Below are positions 29,292-64,000 of a stretch of 64,000 nucleotides of DNA, piece after piece. This stretch comes from an uncultured delta proteobacterium (GTDB lineage Bacteria > Desulfobacterota > Binatia > UBA9968): positions 64,001-128,000 of the forward strand of contig CAVXEP010000032.1 in assembly GCA_963760795.1 (NCBI GenBank), written 5' to 3'. The notes under the pieces are model-generated. The model was not told where the DNA came from. It saw nothing but the letters and a program-made list of their open reading frames with translations, and did not search any database. The stretch's first letter is position 1; each line of letters begins with the position of its first letter. The translations under genes and the position numbers were made by a program.

Positions 29292-29735
29292 TTGCTTACA
29301 TTGGACGCTAAGGAAATCCTCAACTATTTGCCGCATCGATATCCGTTTCTCTTGGTCGACCGGATTGTTGAAATAGAGGGCGCGGAGCGCATCGTCGGCA
29401 TCAAAAACGTTTCATTCAACGAACCTTTTTTTCAGGGCCATTTCCCGGATCATCCGGTCATGCCGGGAGTGTTGATTTGTGAGGCGATGGCGCAGGTCGG
29501 CGCCATCTTCGCTCATAATACCCGCGGCGGCATGAATGATAAGCGGATTTTTATGCTGACCGGCCTCGATCAAGTCAAGTTCAAGCGTCCGGTGGTACCC
29601 GGCGATCAGTTGCGGATCGAGCTAACCTGCGAAAAGCGCCGTGGCGCCTATTGGAAAATGCAAGGTGTAGCCAGCGTGGATGGCAAGGTGGCGGCGCAAG
29701 CGCTGATCTCAGCCATGGAAGTTGCAATGGCGTAG
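29292..29735 (+). CDS. fabZ: 3-hydroxyacyl-ACP dehydratase
   Basis: 'LPHRYPFLLVDR', 'FFQGHFP..PVMPGVLICEAMAQ'. Confidence 0.96.
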   Translation: MLTLDAKEILNYLPHRYPFLLVDRIVEIEGAERIVGIKNVSFNEPFFQGHFPDHPVMPGVLICEAMAQVGAIFAHNTRGGMNDKRIFMLTGLDQVKFKRPVVPGDQLRIELTCEKRRGAYWKMQGVASVDGKVAAQALISAMEVAMA

Positions 29736-29749
29736 GGCGGTCGGCGCAA

Positions 29750-30526
29750 TTGGCTAAGATTCATTCCACCGCGGTTGTCGATCCGCATGCCGAGCTGGCG
29801 AGTGACGTTGAGATCGGTCCCTATGTCGTGGTTGGCGCTCATGTCAAAATCGGCGCAGCAACCCGGATTCAATCCCACGCAGTGATCGACGGGCTGACGA
29901 CGATTGGACGGGGTAACGTTATTTTCCCATTCGCCACCGTCGGGACGATTCCCCAGGATTTAAAGTACCGAGGCGAACCGAGCGAACTGGTTATCGGCAA
30001 CGACAACCAGATTCGCGAGTTCGCGTCGCTCAATCCCGGCACGGTCGGCGGCGGCATGATTACCCGGGTGGGGAACCATAACCTGCTCATGATGTACTGC
30101 CATATCGCCCATGATTGCATTGTCGGCAATCGTAATGTCATCGCCAATGGCGCCACCCTCGGCGGCCATGTGACGATCGAGGATAATGTCATTGTTGGCG
30201 GTTTGGTTGGAATCCATCAGTTTGTTCGCATCGGCAGCGGGGCGATTCTCGGCGCGGGCTCGATGGTTGCCAAAGATGTGCCGCCATTTTGCAATGCCAC
30301 CGGCGACCGCGCCAGATTGCATGGCCTCAACATCGAAGGGATGAAACGGCGCGGTTTTGACAAAGCGAAGATCGACGCGATCCACAAAGCCTACCGCATT
30401 GTCTTTCGTTCCAAACTCAAGATTCCCCCGGCCTTGGAGAAAATCCGCAGTGAGCTGCCGGCGCTACCGGAGATCGAGCAGTTCGCATCTTTTATTGCCG
30501 CTTCCGATCGCGGCGTGTGCCGTTAG
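29750..30526 (+). CDS. lpxA: Acyl-ACP--UDP-N-acetylglucosamine O-acyltransferase
   Basis: 'IHSTAVV', 'PQDLKY', 'HIAHDC', 'HQFVRIG'; TTG start. Confidence 0.95.
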   Translation: MAKIHSTAVVDPHAELASDVEIGPYVVVGAHVKIGAATRIQSHAVIDGLTTIGRGNVIFPFATVGTIPQDLKYRGEPSELVIGNDNQIREFASLNPGTVGGGMITRVGNHNLLMMYCHIAHDCIVGNRNVIANGATLGGHVTIEDNVIVGGLVGIHQFVRIGSGAILGAGSMVAKDVPPFCNATGDRARLHGLNIEGMKRRGFDKAKIDAIHKAYRIVFRSKLKIPPALEKIRSELPALPEIEQFASFIAASDRGVCR

Positions 30527-30532
30527 ACGCCG

Positions 30533-30783
30533 CCAGGAATATTCGTGGTGAAGCAGCGATCGAGGAGAAACCCTTCCGGAGCGAAGGCAAAGCAGCTCTG
30601 CCTTGATGAGGCAAGCGAAGCGATCTGCTGTGATACCACCTGTGAAATGGTCAAATCTCTTGCCAAGCGCCGACCATGACGGTGAAGCATTTGGCGCCTA
30701 TGCCTTGGCTCGACTTTTCAGCTGGGGTTCCAGCTCGATAGACACTCTGTCGATCGCTTGCCTGGGAGCATGAACAATCCAAA
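30533..30783 (+). ncRNA. Unknown structured repeat element, copy 1 (MITE-like or ncRNA); ends degenerate
   Basis: Colinear with 41694-41933 (roughly 75-80% identical by eye); no shared reading frame; conserved nested helices; strand not established. Confidence 0.55.
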
Positions 30784-30828
30784 CCGGCTTTTTCAACCGT
30801 GCCGCAGCTTCTTACCAATCCACAGCGA

Positions 30829-31644
30829 ATGAACAAGATCGGCAAGATCGGTTTAATTGCCGGTAACGGCAAGTTTCCAATGATCTTTGCCGAGGAAGCG
30901 AAGCGTCAGGGTTACTCGGTGGTGGCATTGGCGCACCGGGAGGAGACCGACGCGGCGCTGGAAAAACGCGTCGACGAGTTTACTTGGATCTATGTCGGCC
31001 AACTAGGGAAGATTATCAGGACTTTTCAGAAAGCCGGCGTGACCGAGGCGGTGATGGCCGGCGGCATTCGCAAGGTCAGACTGCTTGGCAACTTTCGCCC
31101 GGATCTGCGCGGCGCGCGGTTTCTCGCCAGGATTAAAAGCCGTGACGACGACGCGCTGTTGCGCGGTATCGCCGACGAACTGGCCAGCGACGGCATAAGG
31201 ATTATCGACTCGACTTTCTGTTTGTCGAGCATCATCCCACAAGAAGGAGTCCTGACCCGCCGGGCGCCCAATGCCGCGCAATGGCAAGACATTGCCATGG
31301 GCGTTCGTTTGGCGAAGGAAATTGGCCGTTTGGGAGTCGGCCAAACGGTCGTGATCAAGAATCAGGTGATCGTCGCGGTGGAAGCTGTGGAAGGCACCGA
31401 CGCGGCGATTCAACGGGGCGGCCTATTGGCCAAGTCCGGCTGTGTCGTGGTCAAGGTCAGCAAGCCGCAACAGGATTTGCGCTTCGACGTTCCGGCCGTC
31501 GGTGTCGAAACGATCAATGCGCTCAGCCAGGTCGGCGGCGCCGTGCTTGCCATTGAGGCGGGTAAGGCGATATTGATCGAGAAGGATGAATTGCTGCGTG
31601 TCGCAGACGCCTCCGGCGTCGCCGTCGTCGCCGTCGCCGCTTGA
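30829..31644 (+). CDS. lpxI: UDP-2,3-diacylglucosamine diphosphatase LpxI
   Basis: 'IGLIAGNG.FP', 'GQTVV....VAVEAVEGTD', 'KPQQDLRFDVPAVG'. Confidence 0.92.
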   Translation: MNKIGKIGLIAGNGKFPMIFAEEAKRQGYSVVALAHREETDAALEKRVDEFTWIYVGQLGKIIRTFQKAGVTEAVMAGGIRKVRLLGNFRPDLRGARFLARIKSRDDDALLRGIADELASDGIRIIDSTFCLSSIIPQEGVLTRRAPNAAQWQDIAMGVRLAKEIGRLGVGQTVVIKNQVIVAVEAVEGTDAAIQRGGLLAKSGCVVVKVSKPQQDLRFDVPAVGVETINALSQVGGAVLAIEAGKAILIEKDELLRVADASGVAVVAVAA

Positions 31645-33742: not shown

Positions 33743-35520
33743 AAAAAATCGAACGAATCAATTCAGTGAAAACCTACCGCCGTTTGTTGCAGTTCTTAAA
33801 GCCGTATATCTGGCCCTATTTCGTTTTGGCGATGATTTGTATGGTGGCGTTCGGCGCCACCGATGGTTCGATTCCATTTCTGGTACAGCCGATCATGGAC
33901 GATGTGTTCGGCAAGCGCGATCAAGCCATGCTGAACTTAATTCCTTTTCTGGTGATCGGTCTGTTCGCGTTTCGCGGCTTGATGAACTTTGGCCAAAGCT
34001 ATCTCACCGACTATGTCGGCCTGCGCATTATCAACGATGTGCGCAATGCCCTCAATCGCCACTTCCAATCGCTGTCGCTGTCGTTTTTCTACCGCCATCC
34101 CACCGGAACGCTGATCTCCCGGGTCAACAGCGACGTCGTCTTGCTGCGCTTCGCGATCACTGATGCGTTGGCGTCGTTTCTCAAAGATACCACGTCGCTG
34201 ATCGCTCTGGTCACGGTCGCGTTCCTCAAGGATTGGGTGCTCGCTTCGATCGCCTTTTTCGTATTTCCCGCTTCCGTGCTGCCGATCATCCGACTGAGCA
34301 GGAACATCAAAAAATTTACCAAGCGCGGGCAAGTGAGCACCGGTAGGCTCACCGTGCTGTTGCAAGAGAGCATTCAGGGCAACCGCATTGTCAAAGCTTT
34401 CGGCATGGAAGATTACGAAGACCGGCGCTTCATGGCGGAGAACTGGCGGCTCTTCAAAGATTCACTGCGCGCCAGCCGGATCAAGTCGATCGTTGCGCCG
34501 TCGATGGAGCTGTTGGCTTCGTTCGGCATTGGCGGCGTGGTTTGGTACGGCGGGTGGAGCGTTATCGGCGGCGGGCGCACGCAAGGCGAATTCTTTGCTT
34601 TCATGGCGGCGATGTTTTTGATGTATGCGCCTTTTAAAGGGCTGAGCCGCACTTACACGGCGGTCCATCAGGGACTTGCGGGCGCCGAACGAGTCTTCGA
34701 AATACTCGACGAGAAACCGGAGATTAGCGACAAGCCGGGAGCCCGACTTGCCAAACCGTTCGCGGGCAAAATCGATCTGCAAAATGTCAGCTTCGCCTAT
34801 GGCGAAACTCCGGTACTCAAAAATATCGATCTCACCGTCGACGCCGGCCAAATGGTCGCCTTGGTGGGCATGAGCGGCGTCGGTAAAAGCACCCTGGTCG
34901 ACTTGATTCCACGCTTTTACGACGTCAACTCCGGCCGGATTCTGGTCGACGGCGTGGATATTCGCGAGCTCACGGTGCAATCGCTGCGCGGGCAAATCGG
35001 CATCGTCACCCAGCACACTTTCTTGTTCAACGATAGCATCCGAAACAATATCGCCTACGGCGATCCCGAGCGCGATATGACGGCGATCATCGCAGCGGCC
35101 AAGGCGGCCCATGCCCATGAGTTCATCACCGCCATGCCTAACGGTTACGATTCGGAGATCGGTGAAATGGGCTTGCAGCTCTCCGGCGGCCAGCGCCAAC
35201 GCATCGCGATCGCGCGGGCGTTATTGAAAGATGCGCCGATCCTAATCCTTGACGAAGCGACTTCATCGCTGGATGCCGATTCCGAACGTTCGGTTCAGGA
35301 AGCGCTGGAAACTTTGATGAGCACGCGAACGACCATCGTGATCGCGCACCGGTTGTCGACGATTCGCAAGGCCGACCGGATCGTCGTCATGGTCGACGGC
35401 GCCATCGCTGAAGAAGGCACCCATGACGAGCTGTTGGCGCAGGATCGCGAGTACAGCCGGCTGTACTCGCTGCAATTACTCGAAAATCGCCAAGTGAACG
35501 AAATCGAATTGGTGCACTAG
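33739..35520 (+). CDS. msbA: Lipid A flippase ABC transporter MsbA
   Basis: Fused TMD+NBD, GMSGVGKS, LSGGQRQR, DEATSSLD; between lpxB and waaA/lpxK. Confidence 0.9.
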   Translation: MKKIERINSVKTYRRLLQFLKPYIWPYFVLAMICMVAFGATDGSIPFLVQPIMDDVFGKRDQAMLNLIPFLVIGLFAFRGLMNFGQSYLTDYVGLRIINDVRNALNRHFQSLSLSFFYRHPTGTLISRVNSDVVLLRFAITDALASFLKDTTSLIALVTVAFLKDWVLASIAFFVFPASVLPIIRLSRNIKKFTKRGQVSTGRLTVLLQESIQGNRIVKAFGMEDYEDRRFMAENWRLFKDSLRASRIKSIVAPSMELLASFGIGGVVWYGGWSVIGGGRTQGEFFAFMAAMFLMYAPFKGLSRTYTAVHQGLAGAERVFEILDEKPEISDKPGARLAKPFAGKIDLQNVSFAYGETPVLKNIDLTVDAGQMVALVGMSGVGKSTLVDLIPRFYDVNSGRILVDGVDIRELTVQSLRGQIGIVTQHTFLFNDSIRNNIAYGDPERDMTAIIAAAKAAHAHEFITAMPNGYDSEIGEMGLQLSGGQRQRIAIARALLKDAPILILDEATSSLDADSERSVQEALETLMSTRTTIVIAHRLSTIRKADRIVVMVDGAIAEEGTHDELLAQDREYSRLYSLQLLENRQVNEIELVH

Positions 35521-40567: not shown

Positions 40568-41683
40568 ATGCTCGCAGTGAATTGGGACAATGTGCTGGTT
40601 TTGCAGACGAGCTTTCTCGGCGACTTGGTGTTGACGTTGCCCTTGATCGCCGAAATCAGGAGCAGATTTCCGGTCAGAAAACTGTCGCTGATGTGCACCC
40701 CGCTCGGTCGAGAACTCTTGCAGGATCATCCGGCGATCGATGAGATCCTCGTCGACGATAAGAAAAGAACGCATCGCGGCTGGCGCGGTTTGACCGCGCA
40801 AGCGGCATTACTGCGGCAGCAACGGTTTACCGTAGCCCTGACGCCGCATAAGTCGGCGCGCAGCGCTTTCATGCTCTATCGAGCGAACATTCCGCAACGA
40901 ATCGGCTTTCGCCAGAGCAAGGGTTGGTTTTTCTTTCATCATTGCGCCGAGCGCGATCCCGCCCGTCATGATGTCGAGCGGAACTTATCGGTTTTGCAGC
41001 CCCTGGGGGTGCGTGTGCAAGATTGTGCTCGGGAGCTCGAGCTGCCGCCGCGCCGGCAAATCGACGATGCCGTCGCCGATAAACTGCGGCAACTCGGTGT
41101 CGTTGACGGCAAACCGGCCATCGGCGTAAATTCCGGCTCGATCTGGCCGACCAAGCGCTGGTGGCTGGAAGGGTTCGCCGAGTTCATTGGACTAGTAAAG
41201 GCAAAGCTCGATTGTCAGGTTTTACTTTTCGGCGCCCCGGAAGATGCCGATGGGGTCAAGCGATTGTTAGAGCGCAGCGGCGGCGCGGCGCTCGACCTTG
41301 CCGGCAAGTTCAGTTTGCGCGAGCTACCCGCCGCCATCGGGCGCTGCCAGGTTTTTGTCACCAACGACAGCGGCCCGATGCATATCGCCGTGGCACGCAA
41401 GGTGCCGACGGTGGCGCTATTCTGTGCGACCACGCCAGACCTGGGGTTCTATCCTTACAGCGGCAATGCCATCGTTATTCAGAAACAGCTCGGCTGCCGT
41501 CCCTGTACGTCCCATGGCGGCAGAAGGTGTCCGTTGGTGCACGAGAATTGCATTCGCCAGATTCGAGCTCAAACGGTTTTAGCGGCCGTGGAAAAACTTC
41601 TCGCTGGCCAGGCCAGCGGGAAATCACGAGCGCTTTCTGCCGGAATTTCTCACCGCTTAAATTTACTTCCATCGCCAGGTTAA
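40568..41683 (+). CDS. LPS heptosyltransferase (GT9, WaaF-like)
   Basis: 'TSFLGDLVL', 'GSIWPTKRW', 'TNDSGPMHIA', 'CRPC..HG...CP..H..C'. Confidence 0.88.
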   Translation: MLAVNWDNVLVLQTSFLGDLVLTLPLIAEIRSRFPVRKLSLMCTPLGRELLQDHPAIDEILVDDKKRTHRGWRGLTAQAALLRQQRFTVALTPHKSARSAFMLYRANIPQRIGFRQSKGWFFFHHCAERDPARHDVERNLSVLQPLGVRVQDCARELELPPRRQIDDAVADKLRQLGVVDGKPAIGVNSGSIWPTKRWWLEGFAEFIGLVKAKLDCQVLLFGAPEDADGVKRLLERSGGAALDLAGKFSLRELPAAIGRCQVFVTNDSGPMHIAVARKVPTVALFCATTPDLGFYPYSGNAIVIQKQLGCRPCTSHGGRRCPLVHENCIRQIRAQTVLAAVEKLLAGQASGKSRALSAGISHRLNLLPSPG

Positions 41684-41693
41684 CATCTGCTAG

Positions 41694-41933
41694 CCTGGAT
41701 TATTCGTGGTGCAGCCGCGATCGAGCCGAAACCCTACCGGAGCTAAGGCAAAGCGGGCTGCCTTGATGAGACAATGGGGCGATCTGCTGTGAAACCGCCT
41801 GTGAATAGGTCAAGCCGCTTGCCGAGTGCCGATCACGACGATGAAACATTTGGCGCCGATGCCTTCGCGCCTACAGGGTTCCACCTCGATCGACACTCTG
41901 TCGGCACTTTCCAGATAGCATGAATACTCCAGG
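41694..41933 (+). mobile_element. Unknown structured repeat element, copy 2: MITE-like with 15-bp TIRs and CTAG flanks
   Basis: ctag|CCTGGATTATTCGTG ... CATGAATACTCCAGG|ctag (TIR 13/15); internal nested helices; homologous to 30533-30783. Confidence 0.65.
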
Positions 41934-41952
41934 CTAGACTGTTCCCGCCGGT

Positions 41953-42721
41953 ATGTTTTCCGACAATATGATCTGGGGCGCGATACCTGAAGGTTTTCAA
42001 AAGTTGACCGACCCGCAGGGCAACCGCTTGGCGGTCAGGGCCGATCGCCAACGGGAAATTATGTTTTCTACTTGCTTGGATATCGAGAGTTACGGCACGG
42101 CGGCGGGCTTTTATGGGCGCGGCGACATGCGCTCTGTGCAACTGGCCGACGGCACCACTGCATTGTTCCGGCGCTATCGTCATGGCGGGATTTTGCGCTC
42201 GATTACCGGCAAGTGGTTTTTTTCCTGGCCACCCAGGCCATTTCGCGAGCTGACTATTACCGAAGAGTTGCGCCGCAGAGGTTTCCCGACGGTGGAGGTC
42301 TATGCCGCTTGTGTCGGAAAAATCGCCGGGCCGTTTTACCGCGGCTGGTTGGTGACCCGGCAACTGGAAGGCGCCCATGATCTTTGGGCTGCGCTGCAGA
42401 GCGGATTCTGCCAAAGCGTCGGCATTGAGGCCGTCTTGAAGGCGGTTGCGGCGTCGATTCGTCGGATGCATCGCGAGGGAGTGTATCATCGCGATCTCAA
42501 CCTCAAAAATATTTTGGTCCGTTCGACCACCGCGGGAGTGGAGAGTCATGTCATCGATTTCGATCAGGCGATTCTGGTCTTGGGGCAACTGCCCGCGCCG
42601 CTGGTCCAGAATAATCTCGCATCGCTTGTTAAGATCGATTGGCAAACTCGATCCGCAACGGCAATACTTCTCGCCAGCGGCCTGGTACGGCTTTCTAGAG
42701 TATTACAATGCCTCCGCCTAA
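41953..42721 (+). CDS. Kdo kinase-like protein (KdkA / LPS kinase family), apparent +1 frameshift near 42618
   Basis: 'YGRG', 'RRYRHGG', 'RPFREL', 'YHRDLNLKNIL', 'IDFD'; C-terminus 'HRLLRSIGKL...W..FLEYY' lies in the +1 frame ending 42721. Confidence 0.8.
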
Positions 42722-43695
42722 GATCGATGCCCAGCGTATCCTGCTGGTCCTGCATGGCTCGATCGGCGACGTGACCCGCGCCTTGCCGCTAGCCGGGTTG
42801 CTGCGCGCCGGTTACCCCAAGGCGTTTATTGCCTGGTCGGTGGAACCGGCGGCGGCGCCGCTGCTTGAAGGCAATTCGGCGATCGACGCAGTGATCCTGT
42901 TCGACCGGCGCCGCTGGTGGAAGAGCTTCGGCGCTTTTCTCAAACAAATTCGCCGGCCACAATTTCGATCTGGTGCTGGACTTGCAGCGCCATCTTAAGA
43001 GCGGTGTCATCAGCCGCTTCAGTGGTGCGCCGCACCGCTTGGGATTTCACCGTACTGATGCCAAGGAGGGCAATTGGCTGTTCAATAATTTGTTCATCGA
43101 ACCCTGCGGCAATAACATCGCCAAGCTCGATCATTACCTCAAGTTCACCGCATTTCTTGGGCTACCGCTCACGCCACTGCGCTGGGATTTCGCATTGACT
43201 GAGGCCGAAAGACATGCGGTTGATGGCCATCTCCAAGGCACCGAATCGCCATTCGCGGTTTTGTTTGTCGGCACTCGTTGGGAGAGCAAAAATTGGTTCG
43301 CCGATCAAATCGCCGCTTGCGCCAATCTGCTGCGGCGCGACCACCGGCTTGGAGTGGTTTTGCTTGGCGGTGCCAATGACCGGCAGTTAGCGGAGCAGTC
43401 TTTAGCGTTGTGCGAGCCGGGTGTCGTCAATCTGGCCGGTAGCACCTCGTTACGCGAGGCGATCGGGATCATCGCCAGGGCAAAAGTGGCGGTCGGACCC
43501 GACACCGGGCTGATGCATATCGCCGCGGCGCTGAGTGTCCCGGTGATCTCGTTATGGGGGGCAACCGAGCCGTTGAGAACTGGGCCCTACGGTTTCGCCA
43601 GCTTGGCGATCAAAGGCGAGGCCCCTTGCAGCCCATGCTATCGCAAGCACTGCCAAATTGGCCGGCAGTGTATGCGGTCGATTGGAACGGATTGA
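42708..43695 (+). CDS. LPS heptosyltransferase (GT9, WaaC-like), apparent +1 frameshift near 42955
   Basis: 'GSIGDV' N-terminus in frame 42708; 'FDLVLDLQ..LKS', 'WESKNW', 'GPDTGLMHIA', 'CSPCY...C' in frame 42973. Confidence 0.8.
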
Positions 43696-63367: not shown

Positions 63368-63407
63368 AAAAGGGCAAGCGGCTAAATGCCGGCTTGCCCT
63401 TTTTTTT
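63368..63407 (+). terminator. Rho-independent terminator (possibly bidirectional)
   Basis: AAAAGGGCAAGC..GCTTGCCC followed by T-run, 20 bp after the ubiD stop. Confidence 0.85.
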
Positions 63408-63745
63408 GCTGCAATTCTATCACTGACGCTGATTTCCGGCGCAGGTGATTGCATTTTACGTAGTGAGTGGAAAACGTGAAGATTCAAAATGTGGGCAGTG
63501 GCTAGCCCGGAGTATTCGCGGCAAAACTACGATCGAGGTGCAACCCTTCCGGAACGAAGGCAAGGCAGTTGTGCCTTGAAGATGCCAGCGGGGCGAGTTG
63601 CTTAACAGATCAGCAGCGAAAAGGTCAAACATCGTGCCGAGCGCCGAACCCAAAACGAAACATTCGCGCCGCTGCCTTCGTTCTTCCAGGGTCAGACCGC
63701 GATCGACAGTATCAAAATTTCCCATCGTAGCACGAATAATCCGGG

Positions 63746-64000
63746 CTAGGATGGCAACTCGATCACCACGGTGACCGGCTTGCCTTTTCTTATGACTTCG
63801 AGCTTGATCCGGGCGGGTGTCTGGAGCGATTGGATCATCGACTCAAGCTCGCCCGCTGAGCGCACCGGCTTGTCGTCGGCTTTGGTAATGATATCTCCGC
63901 GCTCGATACCCGCCTTAGCGGCAATGCTGCCGGGCGCCACTGTGGCGACCAGAACGCCATGCTGCTGCTGGCTTTCAAGCAGTTGAGCTAATTCAGCGGT
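63746..64000 (-). CDS. PDZ-domain protein C-terminus (HtrA/DegP-like PDZ), truncated by window
   Basis: 'GVLVATVAPGSIAAKAGIERGDII...V.S..EL...LEVIRKGK'; frame open to window end. Confidence 0.75.
   Translation of the reverse strand, partial: TAELAQLLESQQQHGVLVATVAPGSIAAKAGIERGDIITKADDKPVRSAGELESMIQSLQTPARIKLEVIRKGKPVTVVIELPS

Follow-up and report, generated by a model that had tools for sequence, protein, structure and literature searches.

Among the MITEs of bacteria are the Correia elements of Neisseria, which have been reported to be cut in mRNA or to stabilize mRNA segments, and ERIC. Insertion sequences (IS) of the IS1380 family have ends starting with CC and short direct repeats of 4-5 bp; elements of the IS630/Tc1-mariner type duplicate TA within CTAG, and those of the IS5 type produce a 4-bp YTAR duplication. 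The piggyBac elements of eukaryotes insert at TTAA and have CCC...GGG ends, and the EAR element of Bacillus eps operons is an Rfam family. MaeMITEa-h of Microcystis aeruginosa measure 176-429 bp in PMC2779907, and Table 2 of PMC3281130 lists IS1247, a member of the IS1380 family, with 1672 bp, inverted repeats of 16/13 bp and a direct repeat of 5 bp. IS1380 transposases form the outgroup of piggyBac in PMC10813416. In the IS1380 passages of PMC3281130, PMC4133298, PMC2779907, PMC3542288 and PMC10813416, IS1380 and MITEs figure as separate elements. A literature search, with supplements and ISfinder lying outside its scope, retrieved no description of an IS1380-derived MITE, and an earlier description is possible. 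It also found nothing linking IS1380 with CTAG and nothing relevant on transposable elements of Binatia.

Two spacers in a run of LPS genes from an uncultured soil lineage are very probably, judged from sequence comparison, copies of a ~250-bp non-coding, non-autonomous MITE that shares its terminal inverted repeats of 17-22 nt with a CTAG-targeting IS1380 subgroup, with the LPS copies as old passengers. The stretch of DNA analysed (the window, 64,000 nt) belongs to a genome of 6.58 Mb in 35 contigs with a completeness of 88.9% (G000). Copy A (30532..30789, + strand, start and end approximate) separates lpxA (29651..30526, +; Hexapep and Acetyltransf_11 in Pfam) from lpxI (30799..31644, +; LpxI_N and LpxI_C in Pfam). 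Copy B (41690..41937, +) lies between a heptosyltransferase-like gene of glycosyltransferase family 9 (GT9; 40568..41683, +) and a gene for a Kdo/WaaP-family LPS kinase (41953..42774, +), both assigned by Pfam. In pairwise alignment of the window stretches, copies A and B align end to end in the same orientation, with 79% identity by BLAST (E 1e-51) and 201 of 247 aligned positions identical in a global alignment, interrupted by several 1-nt indels and one of 8 nt. Copy B has the form CTAG-CCTGGATTATTCGTG ... CATGAATACTCCAGG-CTAG, with CTAG at 41690-41693 and 41934-41937 and terminal inverted repeats at 41694-41708 and 41919-41933, with 13 of the 15 nt in each arm able to pair. In copy A, the ends have degenerated (GCCGCCAGGAAT ... 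ATCCAAACCGG) and neither side has CTAG. An earlier note on this DNA had described two colinear spacers of like orientation, roughly 75-80% identical, and 15-bp terminal inverted repeats with CTAG on both sides of copy B; the alignments (79-81% identity) bear out both descriptions. Its statement that the element occurs twice has to be corrected, as a third full copy belonging to another subfamily and flanked by CTAG on both sides is present in the window (63502..63749, +). It occupies the gap between two converging genes, where a UbiD-like gene is followed first by a hairpin and T-run resembling a terminator (~63372-63407) and then by the element.

Genome-wide, G000 contains six full-length copies (nhmmer with a profile of copies A and B, E <= 9e-32) plus fragments. 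The four copies outside the LPS run adjoin solute-binding-protein genes, the UbiD-like gene and a gene without a Pfam match. Further fragments were located at C29:8786-8875 and C21:19053-19248, and a short form of 119 bp (L035, C29:129247-129365) retains both ends and has lost most of the interior.

From the fetched loci, 51 full-length copies were delimited, one of which (L012) stems from an unpublished genome (G004) and is not needed for any conclusion. These copies span 239-267 bp and follow the form flank-CTAG-CCCGGATTATTC ... GAATAATCCGGG-CTAG-flank, with terminal inverted repeats and a longer left-end consensus of CCCGGATTATTC(G/A)(C/T)GGT... CTAG is found on the left in 35/51, on the right in 30/51 and on both sides in 25/51 copies, and the flanking sequence outside CTAG is unrelated among the 51 copies. 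In an alignment of 43 copies, the arms consist of three inverted blocks, namely the end itself, GATCGAGG..AACCCT and GCGAAGGCA. The element resembles other bacterial MITEs, which are likewise small, non-coding, multi-copy and intergenic, have terminal inverted repeats and a target-site duplication, are often co-transcribed with their neighbours and can fold into a long hairpin; it differs from them in its IS1380-type ends and in its host, uncultured soil bacteria.

The longest stop-free frame falls into six different strand and frame combinations among the 43 copies, and none is conserved across them, in agreement with the earlier remark that copies A and B share no reading frame. Stop triplets are slightly scarce in the 43-copy alignment (17.6 on both strands versus 20.2 in mononucleotide shuffles), and a stop-free frame of at least 81 codons is present in 51% of the copies versus 19% of such shuffles. 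A coding function was considered and rejected, since these long frames differ in frame and strand among copies that are not independent of one another.

The element was detected by DNA search in 14 of 61 related genomes, with 11 of 30 genomes positive in the genus (g1) and 13 of 36 in the whole family (f1), and it was not found in the 24 genomes representing the order's two other families. Four genomes yielded at least 12 scored matches each. Allowing up to one mismatch, the 16-nt end occurs 56, 45, 24, 18 and 2 times in G007, G008, G023, G029 and G019, respectively, and a reversed 16-nt control has no occurrence in these five genomes. Two public records with a full or partial copy (L266 and L261) are Candidatus Binatia MAGs. 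In G023, a solo 16-nt end (CTAGCCCGGATTATTC; L049:377-392, contig C212) precedes by 16 nt the ATG of an ORF of 336 aa, which appears oxidoreductase-like from its translation only. Inspection of end spacings revealed no paired ends 600-3000 bp apart except at this site, where the far end is the solo remnant itself, which, like the sequence left between lpxA and lpxI in G022 (see below), has the look of a deletion footprint.

A clean empty site was identified for the G000 copy on contig C22, which has the structure CTAG-element-CTAG, whereas at the collinear site in G019 the same flanks enclose a lone tetranucleotide (CCAG) and the element is missing. Where CTAG borders the element at either end, a 4-bp duplication is the same in sequence as a TA duplication within CTAG; IS1380 parentage would favour the 4-bp duplication, given that IS1247 of this family is listed with a 5-bp direct repeat in PMC3281130. 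At the site of the third window copy, similarity to five relatives is confined to the upstream, UbiD-like flank, and the downstream flank is not conserved.

Of the 29 genomes containing the lpxA-lpxI locus, three have the element at this junction (G000, G003 and G019), and it was not detected in the other 26. The gap between the two genes, measured by tblastn ends, is at most 69 nt in 24 of 25 intact loci without the element. The spacer of G023 (L091, contig C77) is ~222 nt long with no match to the element. In G017, the lpxI homolog (L100/L101, C2:113495-114176) reads through stops at 52-58% identity, with three TGA and two TAG in frame in one match and two TGA and one TAA in the other, and may be a broken gene. 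G022, which is as close to G000 as are G003 and G019 (LpxI 93-94% identical over the aligned part), retains only a 7-nt footprint, CGCCAGG, joined to the right flank. This sequence is a lineage-specific variant of the left end, so the locus is not a clean empty site and is read here as a probable secondary deletion of copy A.

The GT9-kinase junction contains the complete element in two of 30 loci (G000 and G019). In G003, a degenerate remnant of 218-278 nt still ending in ATCCGGGCTAG occupies the site, and the G022 contig ends at this junction, which cuts the locus there. No element was detected in 26 of the 30 loci, whose corrected spacers range from -7 to 74 nt; in the element-free spacer of G013, CTAG occurs once at the corresponding position. 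The kinase gene of G019 beside the ortholog of copy B (L131, C30:487673-488352) aligns with the G000 protein in three pieces with overlapping ends, which look like frameshifts, either real or assembly errors. From this orthologous pattern of presence and absence, copies A and B appear to have inserted in the common ancestor of G000, G019, G003 and G022, after its split from G013, G021 and G002, and the C22 copy was inserted later than both. The survey of copy number, context and empty sites that had been proposed for the element has thus revealed many copies, unrelated CTAG sites and existing empty sites, the outcome that the note itself had named as refuting an LPS-specific role.

Copies A and B have diverged near-neutrally among these relatives. 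Between G000 and G019, 351 of 409 fourfold-degenerate sites in lpxA, lpxI and GT9 are identical (85.8%), compared with 230 of 257 positions in copy A (89.5%) and 214 of 246 aligned positions in copy B (87.0%). Between G000 and G003, identity amounts to 254 of 307 at fourfold-degenerate sites (82.7%) and 210 of 244 in copy A, with 27 gap columns. Taken together with the decay of the kinase-site copy in G003 and the loss of the lpxA-lpxI copy in G022, this near-neutral divergence gives no sign of host-level constraint.

The ends of the MITE are shared with autonomous IS1380-family elements. One such element (L151, 1627 bp) has the form CTAG-CCCGGATTATTCTCGGTG ... CACCGCGAATAATCCGGG-CTAG, and contains two ORFs with matches to PF13701 and to NF033539 ('IS1380 family transposase'), the latter at model positions 2-201 (156 bits) and 209-419 (148 bits). 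When the N-terminal half of the L151 transposase was used as a query, only G017 matched among 31 genus genomes. This genome encodes a 1657-bp IS with CTAG on both sides, the ends CCCTAATTATTCATGGTT / AACCATGAATAATCCGGG and an intact ORF of 445 aa, which could supply transposase in trans; its match to NF033539 reaches 384 bits, with 180 as the cut-off, and spans positions 2-419 of the 419 in the model. In G031, a member of the same bacterial family, an IS of 1596 bp shares the ends and the CTAG flanks of the G017 element, and its transposase is 79% identical to that of G017; G090, also of this family, encodes a more distant transposase within related ends and CTAG on both sides. The family-wide transposase tallies include two unpublished genomes (G035 and G065), on which nothing rests. 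Full-length IS1380-family elements sharing the MITE ends measure 1596-1738 bp; all start with CCC, and CTAG is present on both sides in 10 of the 11 with both ends in hand.

MITE copies match the ends of the G017, G031 and L151 elements with 100% identity over 17-22 nt, and no similarity was detected beyond the terminal ~22 nt by nhmmer --max or blastn-short, so that the MITE does not look like an internally deleted copy of these IS. The two kinds of element have in common these terminal nucleotides, ends starting with CC, a short flanking repeat (4 bp here) and the CTAG flanks. They differ in that the MITE is only ~250 bp long, encodes no transposase, resembles the IS nowhere but in the terminal ~22 nt and possesses two further inverted blocks in its arms, which the IS lack. 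REPIN/RAYT-type repeats were set aside as a candidate class, the ends being equal to IS1380 inverted repeats. Donor IS and passenger MITE were found together only in G031, which contains the IS plus three partial MITE-like matches; G017, the genome with the intact IS, had no MITE match in the 61-genome search.

An exact 16-mer scan of a collection of species genomes returned at least 120 loci. As chance alone, with all four bases equally frequent, would yield ~280 matches on the two strands of 596 Gb, single exact matches in many phyla were not counted as evidence. In 12 of the 120 loci listed, however, an IS1380-family transposase is encoded directly inside the exact 16-nt end, and these 12 belong, by record title, to Planctomycetota, Alpha- and Gammaproteobacteria and Blastocatellia. 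The 12-nt end CCCGGATTATTC is almost invariant, although the transposases share only 32-54% identity over aligned parts.

The suggestion in the earlier note that the element is a non-autonomous MITE of IS1380 type is therefore supported by its multi-copy, patchy spread, the presence of both CTAG flanks in 25 of 51 copies, the clean empty site and the identity of the ends. We propose that an IS1380-family DDE transposase supplied in trans would bind both ends and insert the element at a CTAG tetranucleotide, duplicating these 4 bp. Copies A and B are probably old insertions drifting at an approximately neutral rate, of which copy A has lost its ends, and the palindromic arms could fold into a long imperfect hairpin within the operon mRNA. 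The note was also correct that the window contains no transposase, and none with these ends was found elsewhere in G000 or in the four MITE-rich genomes (G007, G008, G023 and G029) either, all of them draft assemblies in which repeats break contigs. The family offers a tidy case, from uncultured soil bacteria, of a MITE derived from IS1380.

Beyond the MITE itself, the shared ends point to a subgroup of IS1380 that has CTAG, a palindromic tetranucleotide, as its insertion target and whose ends are strikingly conserved across phyla. This target choice may parallel the TTAA of the related eukaryotic piggyBac elements and could be of interest to research on how transposases choose their targets. 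Like piggyBac, the element has a palindromic tetranucleotide target that is duplicated and CCC...GGG ends, and it is linked to an IS1380-related DDE transposase; unlike piggyBac, it targets CTAG instead of TTAA and resides in prokaryotes. The sole loss seen here, in G022, left a footprint of 7 nt rather than being a precise excision.

Both LPS copies are located between co-directional genes, which makes it most likely that they are passively co-transcribed in the operon mRNA, as contigs from RNA libraries also hint for copy B. The window stretch occurs in soil metagenomes. Contigs of RNA library X16 bridge GT9 into copy B (41564-41755) and those of X15 bridge copy B into the kinase gene (41836-42018); the two are metatranscriptome libraries of one study, the contigs have a depth of 2-3, and DNA carry-over is possible. 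Stretches of the operon that RNA-library contigs leave uncovered were not counted either way. Copy B is covered continuously by a DNA contig, and among two DNA and two RNA-library contig sets none contains a joint that skips copy A or B. In X1, contigs end at either border of copy A, possibly just a consequence of the repeat. Promoter and terminator predictions on the + strand of copies A and B did not exceed those for shuffled sequence, and one weak terminator-like site at 41675-41698 is formed by the flank and the left end of copy B. Elsewhere in the window, at 35008-35441, contig depth is very high in all four runs (up to ~7500), and many loose ends fall at 35175-35220; a motif of an ABC-type ATPase gene, conserved widely enough to draw reads from many organisms, would account for this, the gene identity being a guess.

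No known RNA family was recognized in the element, as the earlier note had stated, with no Rfam match at the gathering score across the whole window and none at E <= 10 over 41600-42000, around copy B. Single-sequence folds are more stable than those of shuffled sequences on both strands (z of -4.2 for + and -3.95 for -), which is attributable to the inverted blocks in the arms. RNAalifold retained 11 pairs (-7.5 kcal/mol) for the 43 copies. When a consensus fold of 95 pairs was projected onto the same copies, 83.6% of cells were paired versus 82.8% in shuffles, so pairing appears to stem from the conserved inverted repeats and not from compensation. Cells with both sides changed number 68 versus 49.4 in shuffles (1 of 500 shuffles reaches 68), an excess that subfamily relatedness can yield; the largest compensatory case, GC to AU in 12 sequences, tracks one subfamily, and many consensus pairs are broken in 15-50% of the copies. 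Among copies between co-directional neighbours, ~15 are sense and 11 antisense, by a crude stop-to-stop ORF count that includes spurious ORFs.

Three-block arms of ~65 nt and a conserved core are features of the MITE that are absent from the parent IS. It is conceivable, if unlikely, that this is the first recognized MITE of a CTAG-specific, cross-phylum IS1380 subgroup in which arms and core constitute a selected module, for example a processed mRNA hairpin that tunes operons such as the LPS run.

We consider it improbable that the element is a MITE by origin whose LPS copies were co-opted as RNA-level modulators, the hairpin being cut or stabilizing mRNA segments, in which case expression of lpxA would be uncoupled from that of lpxI, and expression of GT9 from that of the kinase. 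Such a role would fit the sense orientation of both copies between co-directional genes, the retention of both insertions since before the split of G000 and G019, and the RNA-library contigs across the GT9-element and element-kinase borders of copy B, yet these contigs have the low depth and possible DNA carry-over described above. The single-sequence folds likewise beat shuffles, but they do so equally well on both strands, and pairing across copies hardly exceeds that of shuffles, with only 11 pairs kept by RNAalifold. Furthermore, the orthologous copies diverge at about the rate of fourfold-degenerate sites, the G003 kinase-site copy has decayed, G022 has lost the lpxA-lpxI copy, and the element is absent from the two junctions in 26 of 29 and 26 of 30 relatives, respectively.

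It is highly improbable that the MITE was moved by another CTAG-using transposase, of the IS630/Tc1-mariner or IS5 type, although a 4-bp and a 2-bp duplication would each account for CTAG-element-CTAG where one tetranucleotide marks the empty site. PF13358 (DDE_3) had no match in any of five genomes (G000, G007, G008, G023 and G029), whereas control genomes gave matches, and none of 16 PF01609/PF13701 loci in these five genomes has the end motif or similarity to the MITE. In addition, the exact-end loci listed include the 12 with an IS1380-family transposase inside, and all three IS that a protein search recovered in this bacterial family with both ends identified (G017, G031 and G090) are flanked by CTAG on both sides and share these ends or related ones.

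That the repeats are instead the conserved fold of a dedicated, structured cis-regulatory RNA of envelope/LPS operons, unrelated to transposition, is scarcely credible, since the two copies within one LPS gene run and the stop-poor sequence, well conserved across copies, are outweighed by four of six G000 copies adjoining unrelated genes, dozens of copies at unrelated CTAG sites in congeners, both orientations relative to co-directional neighbours (again by the crude count), LPS junctions that are mostly element-free, near-neutral drift, empty sites, ends identical to IS1380 inverted repeats, an Rfam search that stayed empty even at E <= 10 and covariation barely above shuffles. Neither the constant context nor the purifying selection expected of a cis-regulatory RNA was observed, and the cis-acting envelope-operon RNA put forward in the earlier note finds no support. 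The element shares with EAR a non-coding position between genes of a long envelope-polysaccharide operon; unlike EAR, it has no Rfam match, is not bound to such operons, is mobile and lacks covariation support. The two LPS spacers are ordinary mobile repeats and not a dedicated RNA switch of envelope genes, and in annotation they should be labelled as mobile-element remnants, not as an LPS riboswitch or processing element.

Family membership, copy number, target tetranucleotide, empty sites, identity with IS1380 ends and near-neutral divergence were observed directly for this MITE; mobilization in trans by the IS1380-family transposase and co-transcription are inferred. Copies in G007 are near-identical and several contigs of this genome begin inside a copy, and many near-identical copies account for contig breaks in the assemblies of some congeners. 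The exact 16-nt end is likewise located 36-55 nt from the contig start in L155, L159, L163, L168, L176, L186 and L193, which are MAGs of several phyla, a pattern expected if assemblies break inside a repeat with such an end.
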